Under the pieces are notes generated by a model. The model was given only the letters and a program-made list of their open reading frames with translations. It was not told the origin of the DNA and did not search any database. Position numbers and translations under genes: made by a program. A stretch of 64,000 nucleotides of DNA from an uncultured Chloroflexia bacterium (GTDB lineage Bacteria; Chloroflexota; Limnocylindria; Limnocylindrales; CSP1-4): NCBI GenBank assembly GCA_963849495.1, contig CAWKHN010000022.1, positions 37,576-101,575 of the forward strand, in the 5' to 3' direction. Positions 5,004-63,832 of this stretch are shown here, one piece after another. Within the stretch, counting starts at the first letter, position 1, and each line of letters begins with the position of its first letter.

Positions 5004-5007
5004 CGCG

Positions 5008-5559: not shown

Positions 5560-5561
5560 CG

Positions 5562-5924: not shown

Positions 5925-5935
5925 AGGACACGCCT

Positions 5936-6683: not shown

Positions 6684-6684
6684 C

Positions 6685-7224: not shown

Positions 7225-7230
7225 CGGCCC

Positions 7231-9200: not shown

Positions 9201-9988
9201 TGATCACGCGCAAGTCGAGATCGGAGATCGACAGGATGCGGTCGGCCGGCCGGATCGTGGCCGAGGTGCTCGCGCTGGTCGAGACCGAGCTCCGGCCGGG
9301 GATGTCCACGGCCGAGCTGGACCGGCTCGCCGATCGCCACATCCGGTCCTCGAACGGCATCCCGTCATTCCTCAACTATCTCGGTGGCCGCCGGTACGAC
9401 GCACGTGACCCGCATGCCTATCCGGCCTCGACATGCATCTCGATCGACGACGAGATCGTGCACGGCATCCCCGGTGACCGCGAGATCCGGGCCGGCCAGA
9501 TCGTGTCCGTGGACGTGGGCGTCATCTACGACGGCTGGCACGGCGATGGTGCCCGCTCGTTCATCTGCGGGGGTGACGACATGGCCACCCCGTCTGCGCG
9601 CGGGCTCGTCCAGGCCACCCGCATGGCGCTGATGGCGGGCATCGCGGCGGCCGTGCCGGGCAATCGGATCGGCGACATCTCGGCCGCGGTCGAGGACGTC
9701 GCGAAGGCGGGCGGCTTCGGGATCATCCGGCAGTACGTCGGCCACGGGATCGGCACCTCGATGCACGAGGATCCGCAGGTCCCGAACTTCCGCTCGCGAT
9801 CGACCGGCATCGAGCTCGCGCCCGGGATCTGCATCGCCATCGAGCCGATGCTCACCCTCGGCACCGAGGCAACCGAGACGCTCGACGACGGTTGGACCGT
9901 TGTCACCGCGGACGGGTCCCTGTCCGCCCACTTCGAGCACACGATCGCTATCACGGCGGCCGGGCCCGAGATCCTGACCAGGGTGTAG
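9200..9988 (+). CDS. map: type I methionine aminopeptidase
   Basis: ATG overlaps the adk stop. MITRKSRSEIDRMRSAG start. Metal-binding segments (DDEIVHGIPGDR, HGIGTSMHEDPQVPN, EPMLTLG). Confidence 0.93.
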   Translation: MITRKSRSEIDRMRSAGRIVAEVLALVETELRPGMSTAELDRLADRHIRSSNGIPSFLNYLGGRRYDARDPHAYPASTCISIDDEIVHGIPGDREIRAGQIVSVDVGVIYDGWHGDGARSFICGGDDMATPSARGLVQATRMALMAGIAAAVPGNRIGDISAAVEDVAKAGGFGIIRQYVGHGIGTSMHEDPQVPNFRSRSTGIELAPGICIAIEPMLTLGTEATETLDDGWTVVTADGSLSAHFEHTIAITAAGPEILTRV

Positions 9989-10087
9989 GCGCCATGTTGT
10001 CGGATCGGTGTGAGTTTGATATCCTCACCGTTCGTGTGTCGGCCCGGCCGGGCCGGCACTCGTGCTGAGAAGGACCAGGGAGCAAGG

Positions 10088-10306
10088 TTGGCGAAGAAGG
10101 ACGCGATCGAAGTCGAAGGGACCGTCATCGAGCCGCTGCCGAACACGATGTTCGCGGTGGAGCTCGAGAACGGCCATCGCGTCCTTGCGCACATCAGCGG
10201 CAAGCTCCGGATGAACTTCATCCGGATCCTGCCCGGAGACCGGGTCCGCGTTGAGCTGTCTCCGTACGACCTCACCCGGGGTCGGATCACGTACCGTTTG
10301 AAGTAA
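10088..10306 (+). CDS. infA: translation initiation factor IF-1
   Basis: TTG/GTG-type start gives [52 protein letters not shown], a 72-aa S1-like IF-1. The track ORF starts upstream in the same frame. Confidence 0.9.
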
Positions 10307-10318
10307 TCGAGGAACGCG

Positions 10319-10432
10319 GTGAAGGTCAGAGCGTCAGTCAAGGCGCGGTGTGACAACTGCAAGATCATCCGGCGCCACGGCACCGTGATGGTCATCTGCG
10401 CGAACCCCAAGCACAAGCAGCGGCAGGGCTGA
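10319..10432 (+). CDS. rpmJ: 50S ribosomal protein L36
   Basis: Missing from the ORF track because it is under 60 aa. Manual translation [37 protein letters not shown] (37 aa, zinc ribbon) lies between infA and rpsM. Coordinates are hand-counted and may be off by 1-2 nt. Confidence 0.85.
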
Positions 10433-10436
10433 CCCG

Positions 10437-10811
10437 ATGGCACGTATCGCCGGCATCGACATCCCGCGCGAGAAGCGCGTCGAGATCGCTCTCACCTACA
10501 TCTACGGGATCGGGCTGTCCTCCAGCCAGAAGATTCTCAAGCAGACCAGCGTCAATCCGGACACCCGCGTTCGGGATCTCACCGAGGACCAGGTCAACCG
10601 GCTTCGTGAGGTCATCGACCGCACGCACAAGGTCGAAGGCGATCTTCGTCGCGAGGTGGCGCTCAACATCAAGCGCCTCATCGAGATCGGGTCGTACCGC
10701 GGCATGCGGCATCGCCGCAACCTTCCGGTCCGGGGACAGCGCACCAAGACGAACGCCCGCCAGCGCAGGGGGCCGAAGCGAACGGTCGGCGCGCGCAAGA
10801 AGACGAAGTGA
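10437..10811 (+). CDS. rpsM: 30S ribosomal protein S13
   Basis: 124 aa with [26 protein letters not shown]. Confidence 0.95.
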
Positions 10812-10828
10812 CGAGGAACCGCTAAGGC

Positions 10829-11224
10829 ATGGCCGATCGAAAGCGCGCCGTCAAGCAGCGGCGACGGGAGCGGAAGAACGTTCCGCAGGGACACGTCCAC
10901 ATCCAGGCGACCTTCAACAACACGATCGTGACGATCACGGATCAGACCGGGAACGTCATCTCGTGGGGCTCTGCGGGGATCGCCGGGTTCAAGGGCTCCC
11001 GGAAGAGCACGCCGTATGCAGCCGCGCTCGCCGCGGAAGGCGCCGCACGGCGCGCCATGGAGCATGGGATGCGCCATGTCGAGGTCTACGTGAAGGGCCC
11101 GGGTGCCGGCCGCGAGCAGGCCATCCGATCGCTTCAGGCCGCCGGCCTCGAGGTGAGCGCCATCACCGACGTCACGCCCATCCCTCACAACGGATGCCGC
11201 CCGCCCAAGCGGCGCCGCGTCTGA
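10829..11224 (+). CDS. rpsK: 30S ribosomal protein S11
   Basis: 131 aa with [27 protein letters not shown]. Confidence 0.95.
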
Positions 11225-11237
11225 GCACCGAGAGACC

Positions 11238-11864
11238 ATGGCCCGATACATCGATCCTGTCTGCCGGCTCTGCCGTCGCGAAGGGCTGAAGCTCTTCCTG
11301 AAGGGCACGCGCTGCTATACCAAGAAGTGCTCGTTCGAGCGCCGGCCCTCGCCGCCGGGCCAGCACGGCGTTCGCCGTCGCAAGGTCGGCGACTACGGCC
11401 TGCAGCTGCGCGAGAAGCAGAAGGTACGCCGGGTCTACGGCGTCCTGGAGAAGCAGTTCCGCAACTACTTCGTCGAGGCCTCGCGCCATTCCGGCGTGAC
11501 CGGCGAGTACCTCCTCCAGTCGCTCGAGCTGCGCTTCGACAACGTCGCGTATCGTCTCGGCTTCGCGCCCTCCCGCGCGGCCGCCCGCCAGATGGTGACC
11601 CACGGTCACTTCGCGGTGAACGGCGTGCCGACCAACATCCCCTCGTACCGTCTCAAGATCGGCGACCGGGTCGAGGTGCGTGAGTCGCACCGGGAGCGGG
11701 AGCTGTTCAAGGTGGTCAAGGAGAGCCTCGGGTCGCATCAGCCGCCCGACTGGCTCAGCCTCGACGCGGCGAACCTCGCCGGATCCGTCCTCGCCCTCCC
11801 GCGCCGCGACCAGATGCCGCTCGACTTCAACGAGCAGCTCGTGGTCGAGTACTACTCGAGGTAA
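11238..11864 (+). CDS. rpsD: 30S ribosomal protein S4
   Basis: 208 aa with [26 protein letters not shown]. Confidence 0.95.
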
Positions 11865-11873
11865 TCGCCCTTC

Positions 11874-12899
11874 ATGATCGAACTCGAGACCCCGCAGATC
11901 GAGCCCGTCGCCGAGGCCGGCACGTACGCCAAGTACGAGGCCGGACCGTTGCAGGCGGGGTATGGCGTCACCCTTGGCAACGCGCTGCGCCGCGTGCTGC
12001 TCTCCTCCCTCGAGGGGGCAGCCGTCACGTCGATCCAGATCCGTGACGTGTACCAGGAGTTCTCGACGATCCCGGGCGTGAAGGAAGACGTCACGCAGAT
12101 CGTCCTCAACGTCAAGAAGCTGCGCCTCAAGAGCTACGCGACCCACCCGGTCCAGCTGCGCCTCATCAAGAGCGGCGCCGGCCCGGTCATCGCCGCGGAC
12201 ATCACCGAGTCGGCCGATATCGAGATCGTGAACTCCGACCTCGTCCTGATGACGATCGACTCGGACGACGTCACGATCGAGATGGACCTGACCGTCGAGC
12301 GCGGCGTCGGGTATCTCGCGGCCGAGCGCTCCGAGGCCCTTCCCATCGGCGTGATCGCCGTCGACGCGATCTTCACGCCCGTGCTCAAGGTCAACTACTG
12401 GGTCGAGAGCACCCGGGTCGGTCAGATGACCAACTTCGACAAGCTCACGATCGAGATCGAGACCGACGGCACGATCACCCCGGAAGAGGCGCTGTCGCGC
12501 TCCGCGGACATCCTGGTCCACCAGTTCCAGCCGTTCGTCACCGTCGGGGTCCAGGCCGTCGCGCCGGACAACGCCGCGCCGGGCGTGCCGCAGCTGCCGC
12601 CGAACATGCTCGACATGCCGATCGAGGAGCTGGACCTGCCGATGCGGGCCTACAACTCGCTCAAGCGCAACAACATCGTCAAGGTCGGGCAGCTGCTCCA
12701 GCTCAAGGACGACGACCTGCTCCGCATGCGCAACTTCGGCAAGAAGTCGCTGGACGAGATGAAGGAGCGCCTGCGGATGCGGGGCTTCATCCTCCCGGAG
12801 ACGGAGTCGGACGGCGCCGTCGACGGTGACGACGAGGACGCATCGCTCGACGACGCGTCGCTCGACGACGCGTCGCTGGGCGACGAGGAGGCAGGCTGA
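11874..12899 (+). CDS. rpoA: DNA-directed RNA polymerase subunit alpha
   Basis: 341 aa with an N-terminal domain (GYGVTLGNALRRVLLSS) and a C-terminal domain (ELDLPMRAYNSLKRNNIVKVGQL). Confidence 0.95.
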   Translation: MIELETPQIEPVAEAGTYAKYEAGPLQAGYGVTLGNALRRVLLSSLEGAAVTSIQIRDVYQEFSTIPGVKEDVTQIVLNVKKLRLKSYATHPVQLRLIKSGAGPVIAADITESADIEIVNSDLVLMTIDSDDVTIEMDLTVERGVGYLAAERSEALPIGVIAVDAIFTPVLKVNYWVESTRVGQMTNFDKLTIEIETDGTITPEEALSRSADILVHQFQPFVTVGVQAVAPDNAAPGVPQLPPNMLDMPIEELDLPMRAYNSLKRNNIVKVGQLLQLKDDDLLRMRNFGKKSLDEMKERLRMRGFILPETESDGAVDGDDEDASLDDASLDDASLGDEEAG

Positions 12900-50865: not shown

Positions 50866-51031
50866 GTCGCGTCCGGCGACGGCTGCGCCGGCCGGCGGTC
50901 GTTCGCCGTGCTGACCTCCGGATAGGGCAACCCACCCACGCTTTCGAGGGTGGACCGGAGGTGCGTCGCGGTGGCACGATAGGCCCCCGGAACGCTGACG
51001 CGAGTCGGGAGCCTAACGGGGAGGGCTGCGA

Positions 51032-52804
51032 TTGCGAGAGCCAGGATCCGGCAGCGGAGCCGGACGAGCCCGAGGACCGGATCCCGTGCCGCCCGTGGTC
51101 CCGGCCAAGATCCGGGTGCCGTCGCCGGCGGCCTTGCCGCGCGAGCGCCTCGAGTCGCGGCTGCGCGAGGCGCTCCGGCGGCGCCTGACCCTTGTCGTCG
51201 CCCCGGCCGGCTCCGGCAAGACCACCCTTGTCGCGCGGCTCGCGGGTACCTGCGGCATGCCGGTGGGCTGGTACCGCGCCGAGACATGGGACGCGGACGA
51301 GCGATCCTTCATCCGGCACGTGGAGGCGGCACTCCTGGCCGCGGTTCCCGGGCTGCCCGCGGGCTGGGCCGGCGTGGAGGATGCCGCACGCAACCTGGAG
51401 ACCCGATTGGAATCGGGTCCCGTCCTGCTCGTCATCGACGACTTCCACACGCTCGAGGACACTGAGGCCGAATCCGCGTTCGGGCGGCTGGTCGACTACG
51501 CGCCACCATGGCTCGCGATCGTCGTCGCGTCGCGGGTGGTGCCCCGTGTGAACCTGACCAGGCTCCGGGTTGCCGGGGAGCTCCTGGAGCTCGGACCGGA
51601 CGACCTCCGGTTTCGGGCCTGGGAGGTCGAGGAGCTGTTCCGTGACATCTACCACGACCCGGTTCCGCCTGGCGACCTGGCCGTGCTGGCGAGGCGCACG
51701 GAGGGCTGGGCCGCCGGCCTCCAGCTGTACCACCTCGCGACCCGCGGCAAGTCGGTCGAGGAGCGCCGCCGGGTCCTGACCGGGGCTGGCTCGAGCGTCC
51801 GCCTGGTCCGCGAATACCTCGCGAGCAACGTGCTGTCCGGGCTCCCCGACGAGCTTCGGCGGTTCCTGCTCGACACCTGCGTGCTCGGCCGGTTGTCGGG
51901 CCGGCTGTGTGACGAGCTGCGCGGAGAGCACGGCAGCACGGCGATCCTCGAGGATCTTGCCCACCGCGGCGTGTTCACAGTTCCCGTGGAGGATGCGGAC
52001 GACGCATACCGGTACCACGAGGTGCTGCGTCAGCACCTGGACCGCATGCTCGTGGAGGAGGTCGGCGAGGCACGGGCCCGGGCACGCCATGCGGCCGCCG
52101 GCAGGCTGCTGGAGACCGACGGCGCGCTGTCCGAGGCTCTCCGCGCGTACTGTCGGGCCGAGGATTGGGACGCCCTGCGCCGCCTCCTCGGGATGCAGGG
52201 AGAGCGGCTGGCGGCCACCAGCGAGCGCGCCTGGGTGGACGTGGTGCCGCCGGCGATCGAGCGGCACGACCCGTGGGTGGCCCTGGCCGCGGCACGACGG
52301 GCACGGAACGCCGGGCGCTGGGCGGCGGCGCTGGACGCCTACGCGCGGGCTGCATCAGCGTTCGGGGCAGCGCCCGCGGCCGACATCGCGCGCCGGGAGC
52401 GGCGGGCCCTGGCGGGCTGGCTCGACCCGGCCGCGACACAACCGACGACCGCCGTCGGCCAGCTCCGCGGCGGACTGATCCGCGAGCCCGCGGCCGCGGC
52501 CCGCGACGCGTCGCGGCTGGACGACCGCGAGACCCCGGTCGTCCACGGTCTGCTGGCACTCGCGGCCGGCGACGTTCTCGCGGCCAGGCGCCAGCTCGAG
52601 TCGGCGGCCGACACCGGGGAGGCCGGTCCCATTGCGTGCGCAGCGGCACGTCTCGCGGCTGCGGTGGCCGGCGTGCTGGCCGGAGAGCCCGTGGACCCGC
52701 GGATCCGTCGACCGGGCCGTGGACGAGGCGGAGAGGGCGGGTGTGCCGTGGCTTGCGCGCCTGGCACGGGAGATCGGCGTTCGTCTCGGCGACGAGCCGG
52801 ATGA
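51032..52804 (+). CDS. STAND/AAA-type NTPase regulatory protein (N-terminal part of a probable frameshifted large regulator)
   Basis: Walker A LVVAPAGSGKTTLVARLAG and Walker B LLVIDDFHTLED, followed by a helical/TPR-like region. The frame closes at 52804 while a +1 frame carrying SARP-like sequence opens at 52632. Confidence 0.6.
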   Translation: MREPGSGSGAGRARGPDPVPPVVPAKIRVPSPAALPRERLESRLREALRRRLTLVVAPAGSGKTTLVARLAGTCGMPVGWYRAETWDADERSFIRHVEAALLAAVPGLPAGWAGVEDAARNLETRLESGPVLLVIDDFHTLEDTEAESAFGRLVDYAPPWLAIVVASRVVPRVNLTRLRVAGELLELGPDDLRFRAWEVEELFRDIYHDPVPPGDLAVLARRTEGWAAGLQLYHLATRGKSVEERRRVLTGAGSSVRLVREYLASNVLSGLPDELRRFLLDTCVLGRLSGRLCDELRGEHGSTAILEDLAHRGVFTVPVEDADDAYRYHEVLRQHLDRMLVEEVGEARARARHAAAGRLLETDGALSEALRAYCRAEDWDALRRLLGMQGERLAATSERAWVDVVPPAIERHDPWVALAAARRARNAGRWAAALDAYARAASAFGAAPAADIARRERRALAGWLDPAATQPTTAVGQLRGGLIREPAAAARDASRLDDRETPVVHGLLALAAGDVLAARRQLESAADTGEAGPIACAAARLAAAVAGVLAGEPVDPRIRRPGRGRGGEGGCAVACAPGTGDRRSSRRRAG

Positions 52805-53993
52805 CGCCGCCGACGGCGCCCGGCGAGCCTCCGCGCCGGGCCTCGCGGATGATGAGTGGGGCCCTGCCCTCCTGGCGCTCGCCGATGCCTGGACCGGTGG
52901 CGCCGATCCCGAGGACCGCCTGACCTCGGCCGAGATCGCCGCCGCCGCGTTCCGGCGCGTCGGCGCCGCCGTGCTCGAGGCGTGGTCCCGCGGCCTGGCC
53001 GCAATCGCCCTTGCCCAGTCGGGCGCACCCGATGCCCGGGACGTCGCGCTCTCGGTCGAGAGCCTGGGACGCGCGACGGGTACGCCGGCGGCGCGGCTGC
53101 TGGCCTATGCGGCCCTCGCGGGCATGGGCGAGGAGCGGAGCGAGGAGTTCGCCGTCCTGGCCGCATCCGTCGCCACGGAGACGGGGCTGGAGGTGCCGCA
53201 ATCCATGGCCGTGCCGCCGGATGACGTCGCGACGCGCCCCGGGCCGGCGGGGTCACAGGGCATCGTCCGTCTTCACACGTTCGGAGGATTCATTTTCGAG
53301 CTGGATGGACGGCGCGTGCCGCTCGATGGAGCAAAGCCGCGGGTTCGAGCGCTCCTCCGTCTGCTTGCCGTCAGGGGCGGTGCCCCGGTCCACCGTGAGG
53401 TGATCCAGGACGCGCTGTGGCCCGAGGCCGACGCGGCCGCAGGTGCCCGCAGCCTGCACGTCGCCGTGTCGGCTCTCCGGCGGCTGCTCGACGACGTTGC
53501 GCAGCCGGTCGGCGGAGGGCTGGTGGCCCGGCAGGGGGATGCCTATCGGCTTGACCTGTCCCCGGACGACGTTGACACCGGGCGGTTCGAGCGCGCGATC
53601 GCCGATGGCCGTGCGGCCCGGGCACGCGGAGAGAGTGCGTCGGCCGCGTTCGAGTCCGCGCTGGAGCTCTACGCCGGCGAGCTGCTGCCCGAGGACGGAC
53701 CAGCGGACTGGGTGATCGACGATCGGGAGCGATACAGGAACGAGGCACTGGAGGCGGCTCAGGCGATCGCCGAGAAGGCGCTGCTCGACGGCGACTTCTC
53801 AGTTGCCGTCCGCGCATGCCGGTTCGGCATCGGGCTCGACCGCTACCAGGACAGCCTGTGGCGCGTGCTCATCGAGGCGCGAGATCGCGCCGGGGACGCA
53901 GGGGCCGCGGCTCGTGACCGCCGGGACTATGCGCAGGTGCTCGAGGGCCTCGGCGTCACGATCCCGGACCAGTCTCCCGTCAGCCCGAACTGA
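52632..53993 (+). CDS. SARP-type (OmpR-family winged helix + BTAD) domain protein; probable C-terminal continuation of the upstream STAND ATPase
   Basis: HTFGGFIFELDGRRVPLDGAKPRVRALLRLLAVRGGAPVHREVIQDALWPEADAAAGARSLHVAVSALRRLL matches a trans_reg_C winged helix. ALELYAGELLPED...WRVLIEA is BTAD-like. Confidence 0.6.
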   Translation: MRAQRHVSRLRWPACWPESPWTRGSVDRAVDEAERAGVPWLARLAREIGVRLGDEPDDAADGARRASAPGLADDEWGPALLALADAWTGGADPEDRLTSAEIAAAAFRRVGAAVLEAWSRGLAAIALAQSGAPDARDVALSVESLGRATGTPAARLLAYAALAGMGEERSEEFAVLAASVATETGLEVPQSMAVPPDDVATRPGPAGSQGIVRLHTFGGFIFELDGRRVPLDGAKPRVRALLRLLAVRGGAPVHREVIQDALWPEADAAAGARSLHVAVSALRRLLDDVAQPVGGGLVARQGDAYRLDLSPDDVDTGRFERAIADGRAARARGESASAAFESALELYAGELLPEDGPADWVIDDRERYRNEALEAAQAIAEKALLDGDFSVAVRACRFGIGLDRYQDSLWRVLIEARDRAGDAGAAARDRRDYAQVLEGLGVTIPDQSPVSPN

Positions 53994-54371
53994 GATCGGG
54001 GGACAGCTGCCAGGCTGTTGCCGTCACACGTCCGACGTCGGCGGCGGTCACGGGATCGGAGATCCTGCGCTCGTCACGCCCAGGCAACCGCCACGCGATC
54101 GAAGCTCCCGCGTTCGGGGGCGCTGCTCGTGATCGCCAGGTTTCCCGCTCACGCACCTCGAGTGTCTACCCGAGCCAACTCTGTGTCGCGACCTCGGACG
54201 TCGGCGGAACGACGTCGGCTGCCTGAGGACGGCAGCAACGGGGTCGGTCGAGGTGACAGACCGTAATGACGCCGAGCCTGTCGGGACCCACGATCGTCGT
54301 GCACTGCAATTACAGCCCTGTCCGGCTGCGTGGATTGGCGTGGCCCGCTCCAGCTTAGAGGGTGGCGGCGA

Positions 54372-55946
54372 ATGAAATCTGCACTGATTCGCCGCTTCCC
54401 ACCCGCCGCCACGCGGAAGGTGTTGCCCCTCGCCGCGCTGCTGGCCTTCGTCGTGGTCAGCACGTCCGTGCGAGCGGCAGAGCAGGTGAACCTCGGAACG
54501 GCCACAGGCTTCGCGGTTCTGGCCGGCACCACCATCACGAACAACAATTCGACCACGATCACCGGTGACATCGGCGTGAGCGGCCCCGCCACCACCTCGA
54601 TAACGGATAACGGCACCTTGACGCTGAACGGCACCAGCTACTACGGCGAAACCGTCGCTGACACTGCCCAGGCCGACCTGCACGCCGCGTACGACGCGAC
54701 TGCCGCGCTCCCATCGACGTCCTCAATCGGTGGAGCCCTCGGTCCTCTCCAGACGCTTGGCCCAGGCGTCTACTCTTCGGACGCCGCCTTCAACCTGACG
54801 GGCACCCTGACTCTCGACGGCGAGGGCAACTCGGACGCCGTGTTCATCCTCCGGACAGGGGCCGCGCTCACCACCGCGGCATCCAGCGTTGTCTCGCTCG
54901 AGAACGGCGCAGATGCCTGCAACGTCTTCTGGGTGGTCAACGACGCGGCAACCCTTGGCGCATCGACGGTCTTCAAGGGGACCATCATGGCGGGGGCGGC
55001 GATCACGCTGGGCGCCGGAGCGAGGATCGATGGTCGTGCGCTGTCTCTCAGCGCCGCAGTCACCATGGACGCGAACACAATTGACGTCGGCACATGTGGG
55101 GCCCCGACCGCGATGCCGAGCCTCAGGCTCGCCAAGCACGTCATCAACGACAACGGCGGCACCGCCGTCGCGGGCGACTGGACCCTCTCTGCCGGCGCCT
55201 TCTCGGTGACCGGCTCGGAGGCGGCCCAGGAGGTCACCGACCAGGCCGGCACCTACGCCCTCTCCGAGACGTCGGTCCCGGGCTACGCCACCACCTCGAT
55301 CACCTGTGACGACGCCCCCGGCGTCGGGGTCACCTCGGTGACGATCGGGCCCGGTGAGACCACGACCTGCACGTTCGTCAACGACGACACCGCACCCGAT
55401 GCGACGCCCACACCGGCCCCGACGCCGACCCCGACACCGACCCCGACACCGACGCCGACCCCGACGCCGACCCCGACACCGACCCCGACACCGACGCCGA
55501 CCCCGACGCCGACCCCGACGCCGACCCCGACGCCGACCCCGACCCCGACGCCCACGCCCATCCCGACACCCACGCCCATCCCGACCCCTACCCTGACACC
55601 GACCCCGACGCCGACCCCGACGCCGACCCCGACGCCCACGCCCATCCCGACCCCTACCCTGACACCGACCCCGACGCCGACCCCGACGCCGACCCCTACC
55701 CTGACCCCGACCCCCACCCTGACCCCGGATCCGACCGTGGGTCCGACCGTGGATCCGACCCCTACTGGGTCGATCGAGGCTGGGGACATCGCCCTACCGC
55801 CCACGGACGTGACCGGTCCAGGTCCAGGCCCGGCCGGGGGCCAAACGTGGATTTCGTTCCTGCTCTTCCTGGCCCTGGCCTCATCCGCCCTGCTTGTATC
55901 CGCCCTGATACCTGGGCTGCCGAAGCGGCGGCGCGGACGACGGTGA
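54372..55946 (+). CDS. secreted DUF3494 (ice-binding-like) protein with prealbumin-like domain, (PT)n linker and C-terminal hydrophobic anchor
   Basis: Signal peptide MKSALIRRF...[17 protein letters not shown]3494/IBP-like beta-solenoid segment [38 protein letters not shown]...[41 protein letters not shown]. Then DWTLSAG...TTCTFVND, ~100 aa of TPTPTP, and a C-terminal [32 protein letters not shown]. An alternative start lies at 54330. Confidence 0.6.
55405..55730 (+). repeat. coding hexanucleotide tandem repeat (ACNCCN)n encoding (TP)n linker
   Basis: ccgacaccgaccccgacgccgacc units repeated >50 times. This produces spurious ORFs in the other frames and strand (55283..55987-, 55354..55596+). 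Confidence 0.85.
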
Positions 55947-55996
55947 GAAGCGCCGCGAGGCGGCTGTCGCCGGCCAGATGGTGGCAACCGGCAAGC

Positions 55997-57469
55997 TCAG
56001 CCCTTGCTGAAGAACTCCAGCTCGGACAACACGACCGGGGTGCCGGTCGGCCCGTTGGTGTCGACGACCTTGATCTGCACCGAGTCGACCTTTGAGGCCG
56101 ACAGGTCGAACGTCTGCGAATCGTGGACGTCCTCGAGGTTCAGCGTCGTTGAGGTGCCGTCGGAGAACGTGAGCTGCAGCGTCGCCGGACGGCGCATGTC
56201 GACGAACGAGTTTTCCGAGCCCGAGTGCACGATCACGGCCCCCAGGTCCACGGGTGTCTTGAACGTGATCGTGAGCGACGGCGTGGCGCCGTTGGCCTCC
56301 CAGTCCGTGTTGGTGTAGGTGTCGAATGCGAGCCGGCCCTCGTGGCCCTTGATCTCCTCGGAGGCAGTGACGGTCACTGGTCGCACCGGCTCGAGCGTCG
56401 GCGAGACGATCTTGCGGATGTTGTCGATGACGCCCGGAACGCCGCCGCCGATGGCCTCGTCGATGTACTTGTGGAACGAGGGGACGCCGATGTAGCCGAA
56501 GATGCCGACCGCAACGACGAGCCCGAGCCCGATCTGGAGGAGGCTTCGCAGCCGCAGGATCGACCGGATGCCCGAACGGGCCCCGGCTTTCATCGAGCCC
56601 CCGCGCTCCCCGGCGGCGAATGCCTTGGGCGGCTTCCGCTTGCGTCGGAAGATCCGGCGCCACCAGGGGAGGGTCTTCTCCGACACGACGGCCGCCGCCA
56701 CAAGGCTTTCACCGCAGCGCCGGCAGAACCGGCGCGCGGGATCGTTCGGCTCGGCGCAGGTGCCGCAGATGCGGTCACCGGGCTGGGCCACACGGGCCTC
56801 GACACCGGCGACGGGCCTGGGTCGAGCGGGAGATGCCTCGGTCGGCATCCGCGCGGCCGGCTGTTGCGAGACCGGTTCGCTGGGCATGCGCGGCGCAGGT
56901 TCGACCGGAGGCGCGGCAGCCGGGCCGGGGCGGGCCGGTGGGATGGCGCCGGGGCGGACGGGCGCCGGCTGGAGCGGGGGGGCCGGCTGCGAGGGCGCCG
57001 GCTGGGGCGCCGGTCCGACGGCAGGCGGCGGGACGATCCCACCGGTGCCGGCTGCCCCGAAGGTCACTGACGCTGCACGCGACGGACCCCCGTGGCGGGC
57101 GACCGGCGCGGGAGCTGGTTCCGGCTCGGGCTCGGGCTCAGGTTCCGGCTCTCGGTCGGGTTCGGGCGTGGGTTCCGGCTCGGGCTCGGGCTCAGGTTCC
57201 GGCTCTGGTTCGGGTTCGGGCGTGGGTTCCGGCACCGGTTCGGGTTCCCGCATCGGTTCGGGTTCCGGCACCGGTTCGGGTTCGAGGACGGTCTGGGGCT
57301 GCGGCTCGGGCTCAGGTTCCGGCTCGGGCTCCGGTTCTGGCTCCGGTTCGGGAACGGGCTCCGGCTCCGGTTCGGGCTCCGGCGCACGCGTGGGTTCCAC
57401 CACCGGCTCCGGTTCGGGAACGGGCTCCGGCTCCGGTTCGGGCTCCGGCGCACGCGTGGGTTCCACCAC
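55997..57469 (-). CDS. membrane protein: (PE)n disordered region, zinc ribbon, single TM helix, C-terminal discoidin-like (F5/8 type C-like) ectodomain
   Basis: N-terminal EPEPEP repeats and a Pro-rich segment. [19 protein letters not shown] zinc ribbon. TM helix [20 protein letters not shown]. The C-terminal ~170 aa ([16 protein letters not shown]...[12 protein letters not shown]...[10 protein letters not shown]...) has the hallmarks of a discoidin/carbohydrate-binding domain. Probably fused with the ORF 57528..57995. Confidence 0.55.
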
Positions 57470-57760
57470 CGGCTCCGGTTCGGGCTCGGGCTCAGGTTCC
57501 GGCTCTGGCTCGGGTTCGGGCGTGGGTTCACACCGGCTCCGGTTCGGGCTCGGGCTCAGGTTCCGGCTCAGGCTCAGGTTCCGGCTCAGGCTCAGGTTCC
57601 GGCTCAGGCTCAGGTTCCGGCTCAGGCTCAGGTTCCGGCTCAGGCGCGGGTTCGGGCTCCGGCTCGGGTTCGGGCTCCGGCTCCGGCTCAGGTTCGGGCT
57701 CCGGCTCAGGCTCAGGTTCCGGCTCAGGCGCGGGTTCGGGCTCCGGCTCCGGTTCTGGTT
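57115..57760 (-). repeat. coding hexanucleotide tandem repeat encoding (PE)n / (EP)n
   Basis: ggttccggctcgggctcaggttcc... units on the + strand (GSGS in + frames, PEPE on the minus frame) over ~650 bp. This spawns multiple spurious ORFs (57092..57985+, 56502..58031+, 57064..57531-). Confidence 0.85.
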
Positions 57761-57995
57761 CGATCACCACGACGCGGTCCGCGGGAGACCAGCCACCTCT
57801 CGACAGGCCGGTGGGGGTCGCGGGCGGTGCCGGTTTGGCGGGGGCCGTCGGCGTCGGGGCGTCCGTCCCGGGGGCCTCGGTGCCCTGGTCAGCCTCCTTC
57901 TGGCCGACCCATTCGAGGAACTGGCCGCAGTTCCCGCAGAACGCGTCCGTCGCCTCGTTCCGGTGGCCGCAGTTCCCGCAGATGATCACGCACAC
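57528..57995 (-). CDS. double zinc-ribbon N-terminal module followed by (PE)n repeats; probably the N-terminus of the 55997..57469 gene separated by a frameshift inside the repeat
   Basis: [29 protein letters not shown] is two CxxC pairs. The ORF ends inside the PE repeat. The next ORF starts 59 nt later in a different frame, with the same repeat and orientation. Confidence 0.5.
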
Positions 57996-58062
57996 ACTCC
58001 CCGAGGTCCTCGCCGGTGGGGCAGAGGATAGTCGGGCGCCGCCGCTCGCGGGAGCCCGCCCG

Positions 58063-58620
58063 TCACGCCTTCGCCGCCGTGCCCTTCACGATCTCGATCC
58101 GGTGCAGGACATGAGCCGGCTTGGCCGCCGCCACGAGCGCGTCGAGCCGCTGCGTGTCGACGGCCCGCGGGTCGGGCACCGTCACCCGGACCACGACCAG
58201 GGGCTCCGGCGAGCCGGGCAGCTCGCCTCCCGGGTCCACCGACCAGCCGGTCGCGCCATTCTCGACGATCTCGACGTGGCCGCCGGTCTGGATCTCCACC
58301 TGGCCCGCAAGACCAACCGCCGTGCCCCGCATCCGGTACAGCTCGACCGCACGGGCCACGATGGCTCGCCGCCGGTCCTCGTCCCAGCCCTCGTCCAGGG
58401 CGATCCCCACCCAGCCGGCCAGCCAGGACAGGAAGTCCTCTGGAGCCAGCCATGGGTCGAGGTAGGCGTCGAAGTTGTCCAGCGTGCTGAACACCGGTGC
58501 CAGCACCTCGTCGAGGCCCGACAGGAACCGCTGGGCGAAGTCGTCGTCCTGGTACAGCGCGGGCAGCGATGGTCCCAGCGGATGCGGTGACCGGAGCCCG
58601 GCGATGGTGCCGCGCATCAC
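58063..58620 (-). CDS. phage tail protein I-like baseplate protein (eCIS Afp12/Cis12-like, TIGR02242-type)
   Basis: [82 protein letters not shown] matches the P2 gpI / 'phage tail protein domain' family. ATGA overlap with the upstream baseplate J gene. Confidence 0.8.
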
Positions 58621-60563
58621 GCCCCCTCGACCAGCACCTGGTGCTCGTAGCTGAAGACGAGCGCGTGCGTCTCGAGCTCGAGGCGCTGGGTCTGCTGGCC
58701 GCGCTGCCCGGTCACCGGGTCGGCCCCGAACAGGCGGGCGTCCTCCACCACCTCCGTGCCGCGCAGGGCCTGGAGAACCGAGTAGACCTCGCCCACGCTG
58801 ATCGGCCGGCCGAACGGCCAGCCGGTCCCGTCCGGGCCTCCGGTGATCGGGTGGAAGTACTCGTACAGGGCGGCGAGCGCCTCCTCCTGGAGCCGCGTCG
58901 GGTTGACGCGCGGCCTCGCCTTGAGCTTGGCCACGATCGTGATGCCGCGGTAGACGGGCGGCTCGACGATGGCGCGGGTTCCGATCACGCGGCTCTCGTC
59001 CAGCCGGTCGGTGATCTTCTGGAGGGCGTCCGGGCTGGGAACGAGCTGCTCGAACCGCAGGCGGCCCTGCTCGGCGATGGCGGACGGCACGATCAGCACC
59101 CGGACCGAGCCCGCGTCGGCACCGTCACCGGCGGCGACCGCGCGCACGCGGGCGACATCGGGAGCGGCGTCGCGGGCCAGCTGCTCGTAGTCCTCGGTGG
59201 TCACCGCGCGGCCACGGGCGCGCAGCCGGATCGGCCCCCGGATCTTGGCGTTCTCGATGTCCTCACCGTCCACGCCGCCCCGCGCCGGCCGCCGGTTCTC
59301 GACGCGCGACACGAACGGGATCGAAGACTTGAGGACGCTGATCGACCGCGGGGCCACGTTGCCGCGGCGGCCGCCACCGGTGCGGTACTCCCGAAGCCGG
59401 AGGTGGGCACCCTTGGCCGGCACCGCCCCGTAGCGCCGCAGCACGCCGTCGGCTTGCCGGACCGCCGGTCCGAGGCGCACCTCACCCGCCGACAGGTCGA
59501 GCACGAAGTGGTTGTCGTCCGGGCCGCTGCCCGCGAAGTCGGCGACGTGGGTCCACTCGTCCCAGCCCTCACCGCCGGTGACCTCGAGGACCGGCGTGCC
59601 GTCGCCGGGCACGACGGGGCCACGCTTGAGGGGGAAGCGCTGGCCGGACACGCCGTCGGAGATGCCGACCTCCTCCTCGTGGACGAGATCCGCGTTCACC
59701 GCGTCGACCGTGCCGCCGATCGTGATCGCGGTGAGGCCCGTGATGTTCGGGGACCCGCTGTACGCGGGCTGGCCCTCGGACAGCTCCGTGACGCGAGCCC
59801 GGAGCCAGCCGGCCCGCTGCTTCGAGATGAGCGATGCGACGTGGCCCTTCGGGACGTGGACCACGACGTCGCCGTCCCGGTTGAGGCCGCCGGTCGAGTC
59901 CGCGTCCAGCTCGCATGGCTCCCACTCGTCGCCCGTCCAGGCCTCCCAGGCAAGCGGCGGGTTCGTCGGGTCCACGCCGACCCCGTCGATGTCCGCCTTG
60001 AACCGGAGCCGGACGGCGTTCGACGGGACCGCCTCGGACAGCCCGATGTACAGCGCGTCGCCGGGTTGGGGAACCTGCTGGAAGCAGAACACCTCGGTGC
60101 CCTTCTCGAGGGCGCTGCCATGATCGCGAAGCGTCTTGCCGTCGATCATCGAGCCGATCCGTGCCAGCGAGCTCGGCACGATCGGCAGGTCCTCGATGGT
60201 CGCGAACGCGATCGCCTCGTCCGTGTCGGTGCGGATCGTGGCCACCTGGGTGCCGGCCGCGATCGTGACCACGTCCGGCTGAGGCCCCGAGAGCCAGAAC
60301 GTGACGGCGGTCCGCGCGGCGGTGGGCGGATAGAGGCTGACGCCGATCAGCTCCAGGAACTTCACGTAGTTGCGGTCCGGCACGCGGTTGAGGCGGTACA
60401 CCACCTGGTCGGTCATCCAGGCAAACAGCTCGATGAGCGTCACGCCCGGGTCGGAGACGTTGTGGTCGGTCCATTCCGGGCAGCGCTGCTGGACGAGCCG
60501 CTTGGCATCGTCCACGAGGTCCTGGAAGCGGCGGTCGTCGAGGTTGGGAACCGGCAGGGCCAT
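58617..60563 (-). CDS. baseplate J-like assembly protein (eCIS Afp11/Cis11-like)
   Basis: 648 aa. MALPVPNLDDRRFQDLVDDAKRLVQQRCPEWTDHNVSDPGVTLIELFAWMTDQVVYRLNRVPDRNYVKFLELIGV is the conserved N-terminus of the 'putative baseplate assembly protein' (gpJ/gp6-like) family. Overlaps the gp25 gene stop. Confidence 0.85.
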   Translation of the reverse strand: MALPVPNLDDRRFQDLVDDAKRLVQQRCPEWTDHNVSDPGVTLIELFAWMTDQVVYRLNRVPDRNYVKFLELIGVSLYPPTAARTAVTFWLSGPQPDVVTIAAGTQVATIRTDTDEAIAFATIEDLPIVPSSLARIGSMIDGKTLRDHGSALEKGTEVFCFQQVPQPGDALYIGLSEAVPSNAVRLRFKADIDGVGVDPTNPPLAWEAWTGDEWEPCELDADSTGGLNRDGDVVVHVPKGHVASLISKQRAGWLRARVTELSEGQPAYSGSPNITGLTAITIGGTVDAVNADLVHEEEVGISDGVSGQRFPLKRGPVVPGDGTPVLEVTGGEGWDEWTHVADFAGSGPDDNHFVLDLSAGEVRLGPAVRQADGVLRRYGAVPAKGAHLRLREYRTGGGRRGNVAPRSISVLKSSIPFVSRVENRRPARGGVDGEDIENAKIRGPIRLRARGRAVTTEDYEQLARDAAPDVARVRAVAAGDGADAGSVRVLIVPSAIAEQGRLRFEQLVPSPDALQKITDRLDESRVIGTRAIVEPPVYRGITIVAKLKARPRVNPTRLQEEALAALYEYFHPITGGPDGTGWPFGRPISVGEVYSVLQALRGTEVVEDARLFGADPVTGQRGQQTQRLELETHALVFSYEHQVLVEGA

Positions 60564-60565: not shown

Positions 60566-60964
60566 TCAGTCTCCTCCCGGGATCACGTAGAACGGGAACA
60601 CCAGGTTGCGGCGGTCGTTCGTCCGCCGGATCGCGTACCGGATGTCGATGTACATGACGGTGGGGTCCTTCGCGTCGAAGCTCACGACGACGTCCTCGAC
60701 CTCGATCCGGGGCTCCCAGCGGCGCAGCGCCGCCTTGACCTCTGCCGCGATCGCCGATGCCGTCGTCCCGTCGGCGGATGCGAAGACGTAGTCGTGGATC
60801 CGGCAGCCGAAGTCGGGACGCATCGGGCGCTCGCCCGGCGCGGTGCCGAGGATCAGGCGGATCGCCTCCTCGATCTCGCGCTCGCGCGAGACCAGCGCGA
60901 TGCCGCCGGTCGCGTCGGTTCGCAGCGGGAACGCCCAGCCGCGTCCGATGAACTCGTCGCTCAC
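60566..60964 (-). CDS. GPW/gp25 baseplate wedge protein (eCIS Afp9/Cis9-like)
   Basis: 132 aa. GRGWAFPLRTDATGGIALVSREREIEEAIRLILGTAPGERPMRPDFGCRIHDYVF...RWEPRIEV is a textbook gp25/GPW lysozyme-like fold signature. Confidence 0.88.
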   Translation of the reverse strand: MSDEFIGRGWAFPLRTDATGGIALVSREREIEEAIRLILGTAPGERPMRPDFGCRIHDYVFASADGTTASAIAAEVKAALRRWEPRIEVEDVVVSFDAKDPTVMYIDIRYAIRRTNDRRNLVFPFYVIPGGD

Positions 60965-60974: not shown

Positions 60975-61364
60975 TCACGCCACGCTCACGTCGGTGACCG
61001 TCGCCAGCGGCTGGCCCGGCACCTGGGCGCACATCGCGACCTGCGAGCTGGTGGTCGCGATCGGCTTGCCGCCGGCCGTCACCGTGGGGCTGCCGCTGAG
61101 CACCCTCCCCTGCTCGGTCGTCGGCACCATGAACGGGTCCGCCGGGTGGAGGCCCACGTGCGGCGGCGTGTTGAAACCGGACGAGCCCACGACGGCGACG
61201 GCCTTGCCGCCGATGGTCACCGTCGCCTCCAGGCCCTGGAGCAGCGGAGCGGAGAAGGGGAGCGGGGCGGGCGAGGGCTGCGGCGCCCCCGTTGCCGGGT
61301 TGGGCACCTGGTGGATCGTGCACTGGCCCTGGATCTTGTCGCCCATGACGAGGGGTTGTGCCAT
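60975..61364 (-). CDS. PAAR-like spike tip protein (eCIS Afp10/Cis10-like)
   Basis: Only the C-terminal 129 aa of track ORF 60975..62456 (from MAQPLVMGDKIQGQC). Gly/Val-rich beta-prism-like sequence with Cys/His (CTIHQV, HVGLHPADP, AMCAQ). Lies between vgrG and gp25, so the PAAR call rests on position and composition. ATG verified at 61362-61364. Confidence 0.65.
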   Translation of the reverse strand: MAQPLVMGDKIQGQCTIHQVPNPATGAPQPSPAPLPFSAPLLQGLEATVTIGGKAVAVVGSSGFNTPPHVGLHPADPFMVPTTEQGRVLSGSPTVTAGGKPIATTSSQVAMCAQVPGQPLATVTDVSVA

Positions 61365-61375: not shown

Positions 61376-63073
61376 TCAGTTCAGCGCGACCGTGGCGCCC
61401 TTGATGGCCGTCTGGCCGGACGCCTTGATCTCGACGCTGGAGGCGTCGACCTTGAAGCTGCCCTGCGTCTTGACCTCCACGTCGCCCGTGCCTTCGAGCA
61501 GCAGCTTGCCGTCGAAGTAGACGTGGACCTGTCCCTTGGTCTCGTTGAGCGAGATCCGGAACTTGTTGTCCGCCGAGATCAGGGCGATCCCGGACTCGCC
61601 CGGGTCGTCGAAGAACACCAGCTTGTGGCCGCCGCGCGACACGAACCCGGAGCGCTTGACGGTGCCCGCGTCGAACAGGCCGTCGCCCAGGGGGGCCGTG
61701 TCCTTGCCGTTCCACAGGCCGCCGATGACGATCGGGTGGGAGATGTCTCCCTGCTCGAAGGCGACCAGCACCTCGTCGCCGACCTGCGGCACCCAGACCA
61801 TCCCGTATTCCTTGCCTGCCCCGGGCTGGGACAGGCGGGCCCAGGACGACTCGGCGTCGTCGGACAGCCACGGGAAACGGAGCTTCACCCGGCCCATCGA
61901 CTGGGGGTCGTCGTTGTCGGTCACGATCCCGGGGACGACGCCCGGGATCCGGTTGCCGCCCCCGCCTCCGCTCCCGCCCGAGCCCTGGGCGAGGAGCCCG
62001 TGGATGGAGCGATCCTGGCGGCCGGTGAACTCCAGGAACGTGCGATAGGCGCCGGCCCCGAACTCGTGGCGGGAGCCCGTGATGACCCACTTCCCGGCCA
62101 GTGCGGGATCGACGCCGCTGATGCTCACCGCGACGCCCGCCTTGAGGGCCGGGGAGCCGACGGCCACGGCTGTCGCCTCGAAGGCGGCGCTGCCCACCTG
62201 CTGGCTCCGGGCCGTGGCGAGATCGTCCGCCGTTCCCTGTGACCCCACGGGGTGATCCACGACGGTGAGCGTCTGCCCGCCCACCTTGCCGGCGAGGTCC
62301 GCGGGGCTGACCGAGAGCTGGGCGTTGGCTGCGGTCACGGTTGCCTGGCCGACGATGGCCTCCTTGGCATGCGGGTCCCAACCCCGCACCTTGACGTCTG
62401 CCACCTGCGACACCGCGCTGATCCGGGCGCGGAACTCGAGCAGGTTGTGGCCCCACACGAGCTGGACGGGGTTTTCGGTGTCGAGATCGCCCGCACCCGG
62501 AGCGCCGGAGGACTCGACCGGCTTCTTGAACAGCAGCGTCTCGTCGTCGACACGGCAGTCGAACCCGATCCGGCGAGCGACCCCGTACAGGAACTCCAGG
62601 TCCGACTGGTTCGCCTGGATGACATGCTCGACGGTGCTGCCGGAATCGTCGACGTCCGCACCCAGGCCGGCGTCGCCGGCGATCCGGGACGCGATGTCGG
62701 AGTACTTCACGTTCTGGTAGGTGGTGGTCTTCCGGCCGGCCGCCAGCCGGTGGGACTTGTCGTAGCCGCGGACCACGGCCCGCGTGCCGAGCGAGTCATA
62801 GTCGGCTTCGATCGAGGTGACCTCACCCGTGATGAGCGGCTCCGGGCTGTCGCCGGTGAGCGCCGTCGTCGAGATCCGGACCTTCCTGCCGACCTCGAGG
62901 CCGGCCCGTCCGAGGATGTCGCGCTCCGGGTCCCGGAACACGAGCGTGAACATGTCGGGCATCGCGAGGCGATCCACCACGAGCGCGCTCTCCAGCTGGT
63001 GCTCGACGTCGGGCGCGAGCTCGGCGCCCTCGACCTCGACGATCCGCTGGGTGGAGGCGGTGGAGGTGGCCAT
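61376..63073 (-). CDS. VgrG / phage late control D - gp5-like spike protein (eCIS Afp8/Cis8-like)
   Basis: 565 aa. N-terminal gpD-like domain. Central GIVTDNDDPQSMGRVKLRFPWLSDDAESSWARLSQPGAGKEYGMVWVPQVGDEVLVAFEQGDISHPIVIGGLWNGKD (Phage_base_V/OB-fold signature). C-terminal beta-helix-like GQVHVYFDGK...VEIKASGQ. Confidence 0.88.
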   Translation of the reverse strand: MATSTASTQRIVEVEGAELAPDVEHQLESALVVDRLAMPDMFTLVFRDPERDILGRAGLEVGRKVRISTTALTGDSPEPLITGEVTSIEADYDSLGTRAVVRGYDKSHRLAAGRKTTTYQNVKYSDIASRIAGDAGLGADVDDSGSTVEHVIQANQSDLEFLYGVARRIGFDCRVDDETLLFKKPVESSGAPGAGDLDTENPVQLVWGHNLLEFRARISAVSQVADVKVRGWDPHAKEAIVGQATVTAANAQLSVSPADLAGKVGGQTLTVVDHPVGSQGTADDLATARSQQVGSAAFEATAVAVGSPALKAGVAVSISGVDPALAGKWVITGSRHEFGAGAYRTFLEFTGRQDRSIHGLLAQGSGGSGGGGGNRIPGVVPGIVTDNDDPQSMGRVKLRFPWLSDDAESSWARLSQPGAGKEYGMVWVPQVGDEVLVAFEQGDISHPIVIGGLWNGKDTAPLGDGLFDAGTVKRSGFVSRGGHKLVFFDDPGESGIALISADNKFRISLNETKGQVHVYFDGKLLLEGTGDVEVKTQGSFKVDASSVEIKASGQTAIKGATVALN

Positions 63074-63082: not shown

Positions 63083-63832
63083 TCAGGCGTTCCGCGCCGC
63101 GTCGGCGAGGCTCGGGATCAGCAGCACGGTGCCGGCCGGCAGCCGCATCGGGTCGTCGATTCCGTTGAGCGCCGCGATCGCCCGCCAGTACGCCGGCTTG
63201 CCGAGCTCGCTGTGGGCGACGGACTGGAGGGTGTCGCCCTCGATCATGGTGTGGACGCGCCGGCTGTTGGCTGCGTGCGAGGTCGGGTTCTGGCTGCCGA
63301 TCTGCTCCTGCTGGCCCTCGATCGTGATGTCGACCTTGGCCTGGACCGGCGTGCCGTCCTTGCGGAACACGGTGTAGTTGACGACGACGCTCTTGAGGTA
63401 GCCGCTGAAATCGTCCAACTGGGGGTTGCCGCCCCACTTGAACGAGACCGCGGGCGGGCACGGCTTCTTCCTGTCCCGCGAGGCCGCCGTCGGCCGCGTC
63501 CACGAGAGCAAGGTCGTGATCTTGGGGGTGACGTTGCCCTCCCCTGAAGCGAAGTCGTCGAAGAACAGCTGGGTCGTGAGCGTCATCGCGTTGGTGCCGC
63601 TGAACTCCGGCGTGCCGCCATCCGTGGCGGGGGTCCGGTTGCGGGTCACGTTGAGGGTCTGGGTCAGGCGGTACTCGGTCGGGTTGAACATGCACTCGAT
63701 CTCGGTCACACCCGAGGGCAGGTTGCTCCCGACGCAGACGATCCTGGCCCTGTCGACGTGTTGACCCGCACGCTGGGTCAGGTCGCCCGCACCGATCGTT
63801 CCGGTGTCCGATTGGAGTGATTGCAGCACCAT
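63083..63832 (-). CDS. tail tube-initiator-like protein with C-terminal LysM domain (eCIS Afp7/Cis7-like)
   Basis: N-terminal T4 gp19/tube-like segment (EIECMFNPTEYRL). C-terminal LysM (HTMIEGDTLQSVAHSELGKPAYWRAIAALNGIDDPMRLPAGTVLLIP). Confidence 0.75.
   Translation of the reverse strand: MVLQSLQSDTGTIGAGDLTQRAGQHVDRARIVCVGSNLPSGVTEIECMFNPTEYRLTQTLNVTRNRTPATDGGTPEFSGTNAMTLTTQLFFDDFASGEGNVTPKITTLLSWTRPTAASRDRKKPCPPAVSFKWGGNPQLDDFSGYLKSVVVNYTVFRKDGTPVQAKVDITIEGQQEQIGSQNPTSHAANSRRVHTMIEGDTLQSVAHSELGKPAYWRAIAALNGIDDPMRLPAGTVLLIPSLADAARNA

Follow-up and report, generated by a model that had tools for sequence, protein, structure and literature searches.

Introduction

Contractile injection systems (CISs) of subtype IId are cytoplasmic, and in Streptomyces coelicolor their contraction and firing involve the membrane adaptor CisA (SCO4242; Casu et al. 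2025, PMC12237407). The gene lies just downstream of the baseplate genes, and its product combines an unstructured cytoplasmic N-terminal part, one transmembrane (TM) helix and a conserved domain outside the cell, in an N-in/C-out topology that was shown experimentally for SCO4242 (PMC12237407). CisA is needed for CIS contraction, for stress-induced death and for normal development (PMC12237407). No other factor is known so far to couple a cytoplasmic CIS to the membrane and permit firing, and CisA has been studied only in Streptomyces. Here, we describe a gene that, by its sequence and its position, is a homologue of cisA in an uncultured Chloroflexia bacterium (GTDB lineage Limnocylindria; Limnocylindrales; CSP1-4). 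It was found in a stretch of 64,000 nt (positions 37,576 to 101,575 of the forward strand of contig CAWKHN010000022.1, assembly GCA_963849495.1), called the window in the following, to which all coordinates refer. As assembled, the gene is split by a frameshift.

The genetic and cryo-electron tomography evidence for the CisA requirement comes from S. coelicolor only (PMC12237407). Cis11 was predicted in silico to be the partner of CisA, contacted via the unstructured cytosolic portion, a prediction unconfirmed by experiment, and a pentamer has been predicted for CisA itself (PMC12237407). Vladimirov et al. noted that the region ahead of the TM helix is rich in Cys and probably binds zinc, and that the C-terminal domain is carbohydrate-related (PMC10020575), and Casu et al. 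2023 called the C-terminal domain sugar-binding (PMC10066040). Among the Chloroflexota, Roseiflexus has a CIS of lineage IId that is Streptomyces-like and probably cytoplasmic, and so do other members of the Chloroflexota and Deinococcota (PMC12998442). According to the same 2026 study, Roseiflexus is without a close cisA homologue and its firing mechanism may differ (PMC12998442); the table of CisA homologues in the eLife supplement holds no Roseiflexus entry (PMC12237407). The lineage of the window is related to Roseiflexus at the level of the phylum and, unlike Roseiflexus, has a full-length cisA homologue.

Results

Two open reading frames form one cisA-like gene

The cisA-like gene occupies two open reading frames (ORFs) on the minus strand. 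ORF A, the N-terminal fragment (57528..57989; 154 aa from GTG 57989), terminates at a TGA that the frameshift brings into frame, and ORF B, the remainder of the gene, covers 55997..57469 (490 aa from its first GTG). A preliminary description of this DNA, made from the letters and a list of ORFs, had proposed that the two ORFs together encode one protein, that they lie in different frames and that a gap of 67 bp separates them from the upstream baseplate gene. We confirmed the difference in frame as well as the distance of 67 nt to the Tail_P2_I/Cis12 gene (58063-58620). The two ORFs had also been placed 59 nt apart inside a Pro-Glu (PE) repeat; the location holds, while 58 nt lie between the ORF A stop and the first GTG of ORF B, and three-frame translation showed that no stop closes the ORF B frame between this GTG and the ORF A stop, at the frameshift site. 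When 2 nt are restored at 57524-57536, a single frame of 666 codons results, which gives 664 aa from GTG 57989. ORF A and ORF B are two halves of one gene, in agreement with 41 homologues that are intact single ORFs (see below).

In the ORF listing, ORF A extends over 57528-57995 on the minus strand and encodes 155 aa from GTG 57995. We consider GTG 57989 the likely start of the gene, because translation from there begins with VIICGNCG, as in homologues (whose N termini read V/M-I-[IV]-C), and because the Shine-Dalgarno-like sequence GGGGAG stands 7 nt before it. A scan of 55800-58200 for promoters and terminators yielded nothing beyond chance. On the plus strand, two antisense ORFs (509 and 656 aa; Gly-Ser- and Arg-rich) overlap the cisA-like gene within 56502-58590. 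These were rejected as genes and regarded as by-products of the GC-rich PE repeat, the minus-strand frame having a coding-type GC content at third codon positions.

Homology to CisA of Streptomyces

For comparison, residues 1-310 of SCO4242 were taken from the AlphaFold3 mmCIF file in the eLife 2025 supplement (file 14). SCO4242 begins with MTTQNCAECGTPAEPGQSFCDACGAVLSW, i.e. with a CxxCG-x9-FCxxCG-xxLxW ribbon like that of the window protein (pattern at residues 6-29), and continues after its linker with CPWCSTPNRPDRHYCARC...PWWRRLF...AGDR, followed by the TM helix. Alignment of residues 1-310 to the family profile with hhalign gave a probability of 98.6% (E 8e-16) over the ribbon, the PWWRR and AG[DE]R motifs and the TM segment. 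In a BLASTP comparison of SCO4242 with the repaired window protein, the juxtamembrane block matched at E 8e-12 and, collinear with it, the N-terminal ribbon at E 1e-4, a correspondence also seen in an alignment of 12 N termini. Residues 1-310 were matched by 174 of 233 family proteins.

A tblastn search against plasmids further revealed an orthologue of 545 aa on the linear plasmid NZ_CP109501 of Streptomyces sp. NBC_01426, which is 78% identical to SCO4242 over residues 205-310 of the latter and has a near-identical N terminus. This orthologue aligned to the family profile over 232 columns (hhalign 99.7%, E 2.8e-25), which run from the second ribbon up to the ..EIEFF at the C terminus, and it matched NF047619 at 77.5 bits. 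The cluster in which it lies (locus L080) has the order LysM, VgrG, gp25, baseplate J, tail protein and zinc-ribbon protein, where the gene between VgrG and baseplate J is annotated GPW/gp25, and the order in the window is the same. In addition, the window Cis11 is 54% identical, over its full length, to Cis11 of the Streptomyces CIS cluster. Because the sequence alignments, the shared gene order and the Cis11 identity agree, the window gene is, judged by sequence and position, a homologue of cisA and not merely analogous to it; the preliminary description, which had drawn an analogy in concept to the Streptomyces CIS membrane protein, was too cautious. By their Cys pattern, residues 1-29 of S. 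coelicolor CisA (CAECG...FCDACGAVLSW) form a canonical zinc ribbon with four Cys. In the CisA paper, the N-terminal part is characterised as largely unstructured, and the word "zinc" is absent from the main text (PMC12237407).

Overall, the window gene resembles cisA in being the last gene of its cluster, after cis11 and cis12, and its product shares with CisA the N-terminal ribbon, a low-complexity cytoplasmic linker, the second ribbon, the PWWRR and AG[DE]R motifs, the single TM helix and a C-terminal domain of ~130 aa that matches NF047619 and has an ..EIEFF end, the last of these likenesses being seen in the NBC_01426 orthologue. The differences are that the window protein is only about 26-30% identical, that its linker is about twice as long and near-pure (PE)n whereas the Streptomyces linker is rich in Ala, Pro, Gly and Thr, that its host is of Chloroflexota type and not an actinomycete, and that the window gene is frameshifted as assembled.

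Domain architecture of the repaired protein

The repaired protein of 664 aa consists, in this order, of a zinc ribbon, the PE linker, a second zinc ribbon, a basic PWWRRIF motif, a TM helix and a discoidin (CBM32-like) ectodomain. The N-terminal ribbon (57909..57980, minus strand) has its four Cys at residues 4-21 and scored 25.1 bits against Pfam Zn_Ribbon_1 (cut-off 25); the pattern CxxCG-x9-FCxxCG-xxLxW occurs at residues 4-27 in 41 of 41 intact homologues. A ribbon had been recognised here before, as a double one, and it is a single four-Cys ribbon. Behind it, a short conserved cytoplasmic motif was observed at residues ~45-75 of CisA-family proteins (window 57765-57800, minus strand). It reads PG[LIF][IVL]xRV[KR]xAVG[LI][DE] in at least 44 of 120 family members and GGWSxSDRVV[VL]IEP in the clade of the window, and is a candidate linear interaction motif.

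The other cytoplasmic and membrane parts named in the preliminary description (PE linker, second zinc ribbon, basic juxtamembrane stretch, one TM helix) were all present. The acidic linker is encoded by tandem-repeat DNA (57117..57762, unstranded; Tandem Repeats Finder periods of 6, 18 and 66 nt) and is ~380 aa long, with 37% Pro, 25% Glu and a net charge of -80 over 378 aa. It shares its dipeptide repeat with the rigid Pro-Glu spacers of other proteins, for example the (EP)n segment of TonB and trypanosome procyclin, as reflected in weak, composition-driven matches to Trypan_PARP (Pfam) and TonB (NCBIfam), but there is no homology to these beyond composition, and a spacer role in the window protein is putative. 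The second, juxtamembrane ribbon (56714..56767, minus strand; residues 409-426) gave a partial match to Pfam DZR and aligned to CPWCSTPNRPDRHYCARC of SCO4242. It is followed by the basic membrane-proximal segment with the PWWRR and AG[DE]R motifs (56603..56668, minus strand), which forms near-invariant columns in the family alignments A1 and A2 and has PWWRRLF...AGDR as its SCO4242 counterpart. The single TM helix (56483..56542, minus strand; residues 484-503) coincides with the hydropathy maximum. The 30 residues on its N-side contain 7 K/R versus 1 D/E and the C-side 3 versus 3, a charge bias that, together with the position of the Cys4 ribbons on the N-side, fits an N-in/C-out topology.

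The C-terminal part is a predicted extracytoplasmic NADase-type discoidin domain (F5/8 type C, CBM32-like; 56000..56395, minus strand) that ends in the family motif SELEFF. It matched NCBIfam NF047619 (NADase-type glycan-binding discoidin domain) at 52.2 bits (cut-off 38) and Pfam PF25302 (NADase translocation F5/8 type C domain) at 23.7 bits, under the cut-off of 27. An AlphaFold2 model of the last 271 residues, based on 84 aligned sequences, had a mean predicted local distance difference test score (pLDDT) of 85.6, with 91-93 in the second ribbon and 96-98 in the beta-sandwich, and showed a long helix at the TM position (model residues 82-109). Foldseek returned 244 matches in the PDB at E <= 1e-3; the best were CBM32 modules, an F5/8 type C domain, the muskelin discoidin domain and APC10/DOC domains, with the carbohydrate-binding module 7blg on top (E 2e-8, TM-score 0.77 normalised to the target). 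The discoidin-like beta-sandwich ectodomain of the preliminary description was borne out by the family match, the model and these structural neighbours, and we are confident that the modelled fold is a galactose-binding-domain-like beta-sandwich, with glycan binding putative. Similar to the NADase-type discoidin domains (NF047619/PF25302) and CBM32, the window domain shows the profile match and the beta-sandwich fold; in contrast to them, it is the ectodomain of a bitopic membrane protein and has no enzyme or toxin attached.

The carbohydrate-binding-type domain and the location after the baseplate wedge genes, where a tail fibre would be expected, would also suit a tail-fibre-like receptor-binding protein that sits on the particle and binds a target-cell carbohydrate for extracellular injection. 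Sco4242 peptides were indeed detected in purified particles, and the protein was first proposed as a fibre (PMC10020575). However, the window protein contains one strong TM helix, whose flanking charges show a positive-inside bias, it has no fibre-like trimeric repeats, and Pfam and NCBIfam scans found no fibre family. Moreover, CisA is absent from the cryo-electron microscopy structure of the S. coelicolor particle, and it is found in the membrane fraction, with its C terminus on the outside (PMC12237407). We consider a fibre improbable.

Synteny and extent of the family

A protein search with the core of the protein (second ribbon to end) identified 89 metagenomic proteins, many of them called from internal starts; no JGI protein exceeded 73% identity to this core, which makes it unlikely that the species of the window is represented there. 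When species-representative genomes were scanned, 79 related loci emerged, nearly all in Chloroflexota metagenome-assembled genomes (MAGs) labelled Chloroflexia or Candidatus Limnocylindrales, an order of Chloroflexota, and a few in Actinomycetota MAGs. Synteny was counted over the 62 of these 79 loci with enough upstream DNA, the other 17 being cut by a contig end. In all 62, the genes for LysM/tube protein, VgrG, Cis11 and Cis12, and then the N-terminal ribbon, lie directly upstream of the core, so that the expected linkage of homologues to cis11 and cis12 in related genomes is found without exception. The N-terminal ribbon and the discoidin domain are joined in one unbroken frame in 41 of the 62 loci (372-935 aa).

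The linker varies widely in length across the homologues and comes in two compositional types (loci L001-L076), one P/E-rich as in the window and one A/E/R-rich (e.g. L025, L028, L033, L038, L060 and L063); the composition of the latter suggests charged, single-helix-like spacers. An exhaustive HMMER search with the core profile, counted as clusters at 50% identity, gave 3746 cluster representatives at E <= 1e-3, of which 1240 reached E <= 1e-10 and 470 reached E <= 1e-30. The representatives inspected all had the plan of two ribbons, TM helix and discoidin domain, and the names of cluster members for 10 of the family representatives yielded one informative organism, of the Pseudonocardiaceae.

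The layout of the protein, with a zinc-binding head in the cytoplasm, a TM helix and a putative sensor domain outside, resembles that of zinc-binding membrane anti-sigma factors, and the gene could in principle encode such a factor or another envelope sensor that neighbours the CIS by chance. Speaking against this are the linkage to cis12 in 62 of 62 loci and the surroundings of the gene, which has no sigma-factor gene adjacent to it and a convergent surface protein gene downstream; furthermore, the protein is a homologue of CisA, and the CIS fails to fire when CisA is lost (PMC12237407). A chance neighbour of this kind is the most remote of the explanations that we considered.

Position and probable cause of the frameshift

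The frameshift maps to 57524..57536 on the minus strand, where the sequence reads CCGGTGTGAACCC and is 2 nt shorter than the two downstream copies at 57472 and 57406, which read CCGGTGGTGGAACCC; the first unit of the 66-nt repeat is accordingly 64 nt long. The Pro-Glu pattern of ORF A runs to ...EPEPV and the TGA, and resumes at this point in the +1 frame (CEPTPEPEP...). An example of an in-frame variant of 57524-57536 is GGTGGTGGAA. The site, GGTGTGAA, is not a homopolymer, and the surrounding repeat units are of 6, 18 and 66 nt.

To compare split and intact copies, the 62 loci were divided into those from MAGs with MFD isolate names (45 loci; MFD set), which we take to be long-read assemblies, and those from other assemblies (17 loci). 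Split copies were found in 21 of 45 loci of the MFD set, 24 being intact, versus 0 of 17 elsewhere (Fisher p = 2.3e-4). Core genes of the system were also frame-broken in the MFD set (Cis11 in 10, VgrG in 9 and the LysM/tube gene in 3 of 45 loci), while none was broken in the other assemblies. In the closest relatives, the break points differ from locus to locus and from that of the window. Since the splits are confined to the set with broken core genes and lie at differing sites, they track assembly quality and not lineage.

The preliminary description had taken the frameshift to be phase-variable, pseudogenising or the result of a collapsed repeat. Phase variation was rejected, as the site has no homopolymer, the repeat units are all multiples of three and the split sites are not conserved. 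Collapse of the repeat during assembly was rejected as well, as the loss of in-phase 6-nt units would keep the frame, and so was programmed frameshifting, for which there is neither a slippery site or homopolymer nor a conserved split site. This leaves two candidates, an error of 2 nt in the consensus and a genuine small deletion. It could also be argued that the two ORFs are separate by design, or joined by programmed frameshifting, or phase-variable, given that there are two ORFs as assembled and that 21 related loci are likewise split. Yet 41 homologues are single ORFs, the split sites differ and the splits occur only in the MFD set with its broken core genes; at the site itself there is no slippery heptamer or homopolymer, slippage of units that are multiples of three keeps the frame, and the first start of ORF B lies inside the repeat, without a well-spaced ribosome-binding site. 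We regard this possibility as highly improbable.

We think that the frameshift in the window is probably a consensus error of the assembly. An alternative explanation is a real and recent inactivating mutation, which would leave a soluble 154-aa fragment of head plus linker and possibly a headless membrane protein, so that the CIS would assemble and could not be recruited or fired, as in a natural cisA-null strain. The lesion lies in the hardest-to-call part of the window, yet the change amounts to a small indel, with no long homopolymer at the site, and is not a change in the number of repeat units. Weighing against an error, about 30 other genes of the window that we checked were all full length (including ribosomal proteins, GlmS, PPDK, TsaD and all CIS genes present), so that the assembly is not generally error-prone and a real mutation stays a live option. 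Loss of the gene also appears tolerable, since a cisA deletion in S. coelicolor is viable and sporulates earlier (PMC12237407). On the other hand, none of the 17 loci outside the MFD set is split, which suggests that natural disruption is uncommon, both halves keep a coding-type composition with no second lesion, and the site falls in a GC-rich tandem repeat, where consensus errors concentrate (compare the 21 split MAG loci). A real mutation is possible and we hold it only tentatively, whereas a cause other than these two is quite improbable.

The CIS cluster and its surroundings

The cisA-like gene is the last gene of a CIS cluster on the minus strand. Directly upstream lies the cis12-like baseplate wedge gene (Tail_P2_I; 58063..58620, minus strand; Pfam PF09684 E 1e-15, TIGR02242 121 bits), preceded by the cis11-like baseplate J gene (58617..60563, minus strand; Baseplate_J, TIGR02243 516 bits). 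Next come a 132-aa ORF (60566-60964, minus strand), by its position a putative counterpart of the gp25 gene of the Streptomyces cluster, a PAAR gene at about 60975-61358 (minus strand), a VgrG-like spike gene (61376-63073, minus strand) and a gene for a LysM/CIS_tube protein (63083-63832, minus strand). The remaining cluster lies past the window end. The PAAR gene of the window thus stands between VgrG and the ORF at the gp25 position, in contrast to the Streptomyces plasmid cluster, in which the equivalent gap (L080 2138-2200) is without an annotated gene.

The gene downstream of the cisA-like gene is convergent (54330-55946, plus strand) and encodes a secreted protein with an ice-binding-like (DUF3494) domain and a SpaA prealbumin-like domain, a long Pro-Thr repeat (Tandem Repeats Finder 55402-55727), a C-terminal hydrophobic anchor and an RRRGRR tail. 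A homologue of this surface protein is also found downstream of the cisA-like gene in loci L002 and L003. Elsewhere in the window, a ribosomal operon (1-12000, plus strand) encodes S19, L22, S3, L16, S17, L14, L6, L18, S11 and S4, whose Pfam profiles were matched essentially full length. Two overlapping plus-strand frames, one with AAA/STAND NTPase matches (51017-52804) and one with Trans_reg_C and BTAD, the latter in its C-terminal half only (52479-53993), are arranged in an order that is unusual for SARP-type regulators, and they possibly represent a second frame problem.

Discussion

Taken together, we think it very likely that the gene is the cisA of a Streptomyces-like (subtype IId-like) cytoplasmic CIS in a high-GC, Chloroflexota-type genome, whose closest relatives are MAGs with the label Chloroflexia or Candidatus Limnocylindrales, that it encodes a bitopic membrane adaptor and that its split is probably due to an assembly error. 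By homology with S. coelicolor CisA, this adaptor would bring free-floating CIS particles, via their baseplate, to the cytoplasmic membrane and would be needed for sheath contraction. Its N-terminal zinc ribbon, the short conserved motif and the long acidic Pro-Glu tether would lie in the cytoplasm, where the PE array may serve as an acidic spacer, long and extended. The second zinc ribbon with the PWWRR motif and basic residues would sit at the inner face of the membrane, which is crossed by one helix, and the discoidin-type domain would face the cell wall, where it may attach to a glycan of the wall, detect envelope stress or form oligomers. The N-terminal ribbon and the post-ribbon motif are the best candidates for baseplate contact, because they are the only conserved cytoplasmic elements besides the juxtamembrane block.

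Besides the intact genes around the frameshift, several points weigh against this picture. The homology of the C-terminal domain to the Streptomyces protein was tested on the NBC_01426 orthologue only; for SCO4242 itself, the comparison covered residues 1-310 and ended before its C-terminal domain (residues 310-468). The eLife paper likens the C-terminal domain of CisA to solute-binding domains and not to discoidin (PMC12237407), and the papers of 2023 call it sugar-binding (PMC10066040) or related to carbohydrate-degrading domains (PMC10020575). Direct binding of CisA to Cis11 is unproven even in Streptomyces (PMC12237407), and the CisA role that we propose for the Chloroflexota homologues is putative, being drawn from homology with the S. 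coelicolor protein.

The frameshift itself probably has no significance beyond the caution that genes are broken at long GC-rich repeats in MAG assemblies, and the broken core CIS genes of the MFD set call for caution with gene calls from those genomes. If, as we think possible though unlikely, the 2-nt deficit is real, the bacterium would have a CIS whose baseplate cluster is complete and whose CisA is naturally severed, with the N-terminal head made as a soluble, acidic fragment off its membrane anchor. The baseplate-binding head would then be uncoupled from the anchor and the particles would stay extended, as expected for a cisA-null phenotype. Such a severed CisA would represent a natural disarmed state of a suicide-type CIS, and it would offer a ready test of the ribbon as a baseplate hook and of the PE array as a spacer.

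The family, its genomic position and its role have already been published; the finding extends CisA to a lineage of Chloroflexota. New are a full cisA homologue in strict synteny after cis12 in a soil Chloroflexota lineage, the N-terminal ribbon, which is universal in the family and present in SCO4242, the assignment of the C-terminal domain to the NADase-type discoidin family (on the Streptomyces side, for a close orthologue) and the two compositional types of linker. What emerges is a large family with a fixed three-part plan, in which an N-terminal ribbon is connected through a spacer to a block of ribbon, PWWRR motif, TM helix and discoidin domain, and only the linker varies in length and composition. 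The ribbon of SCO4242 and the discoidin domain of its orthologue refine the published description of CisA and provide targets for mutagenesis.

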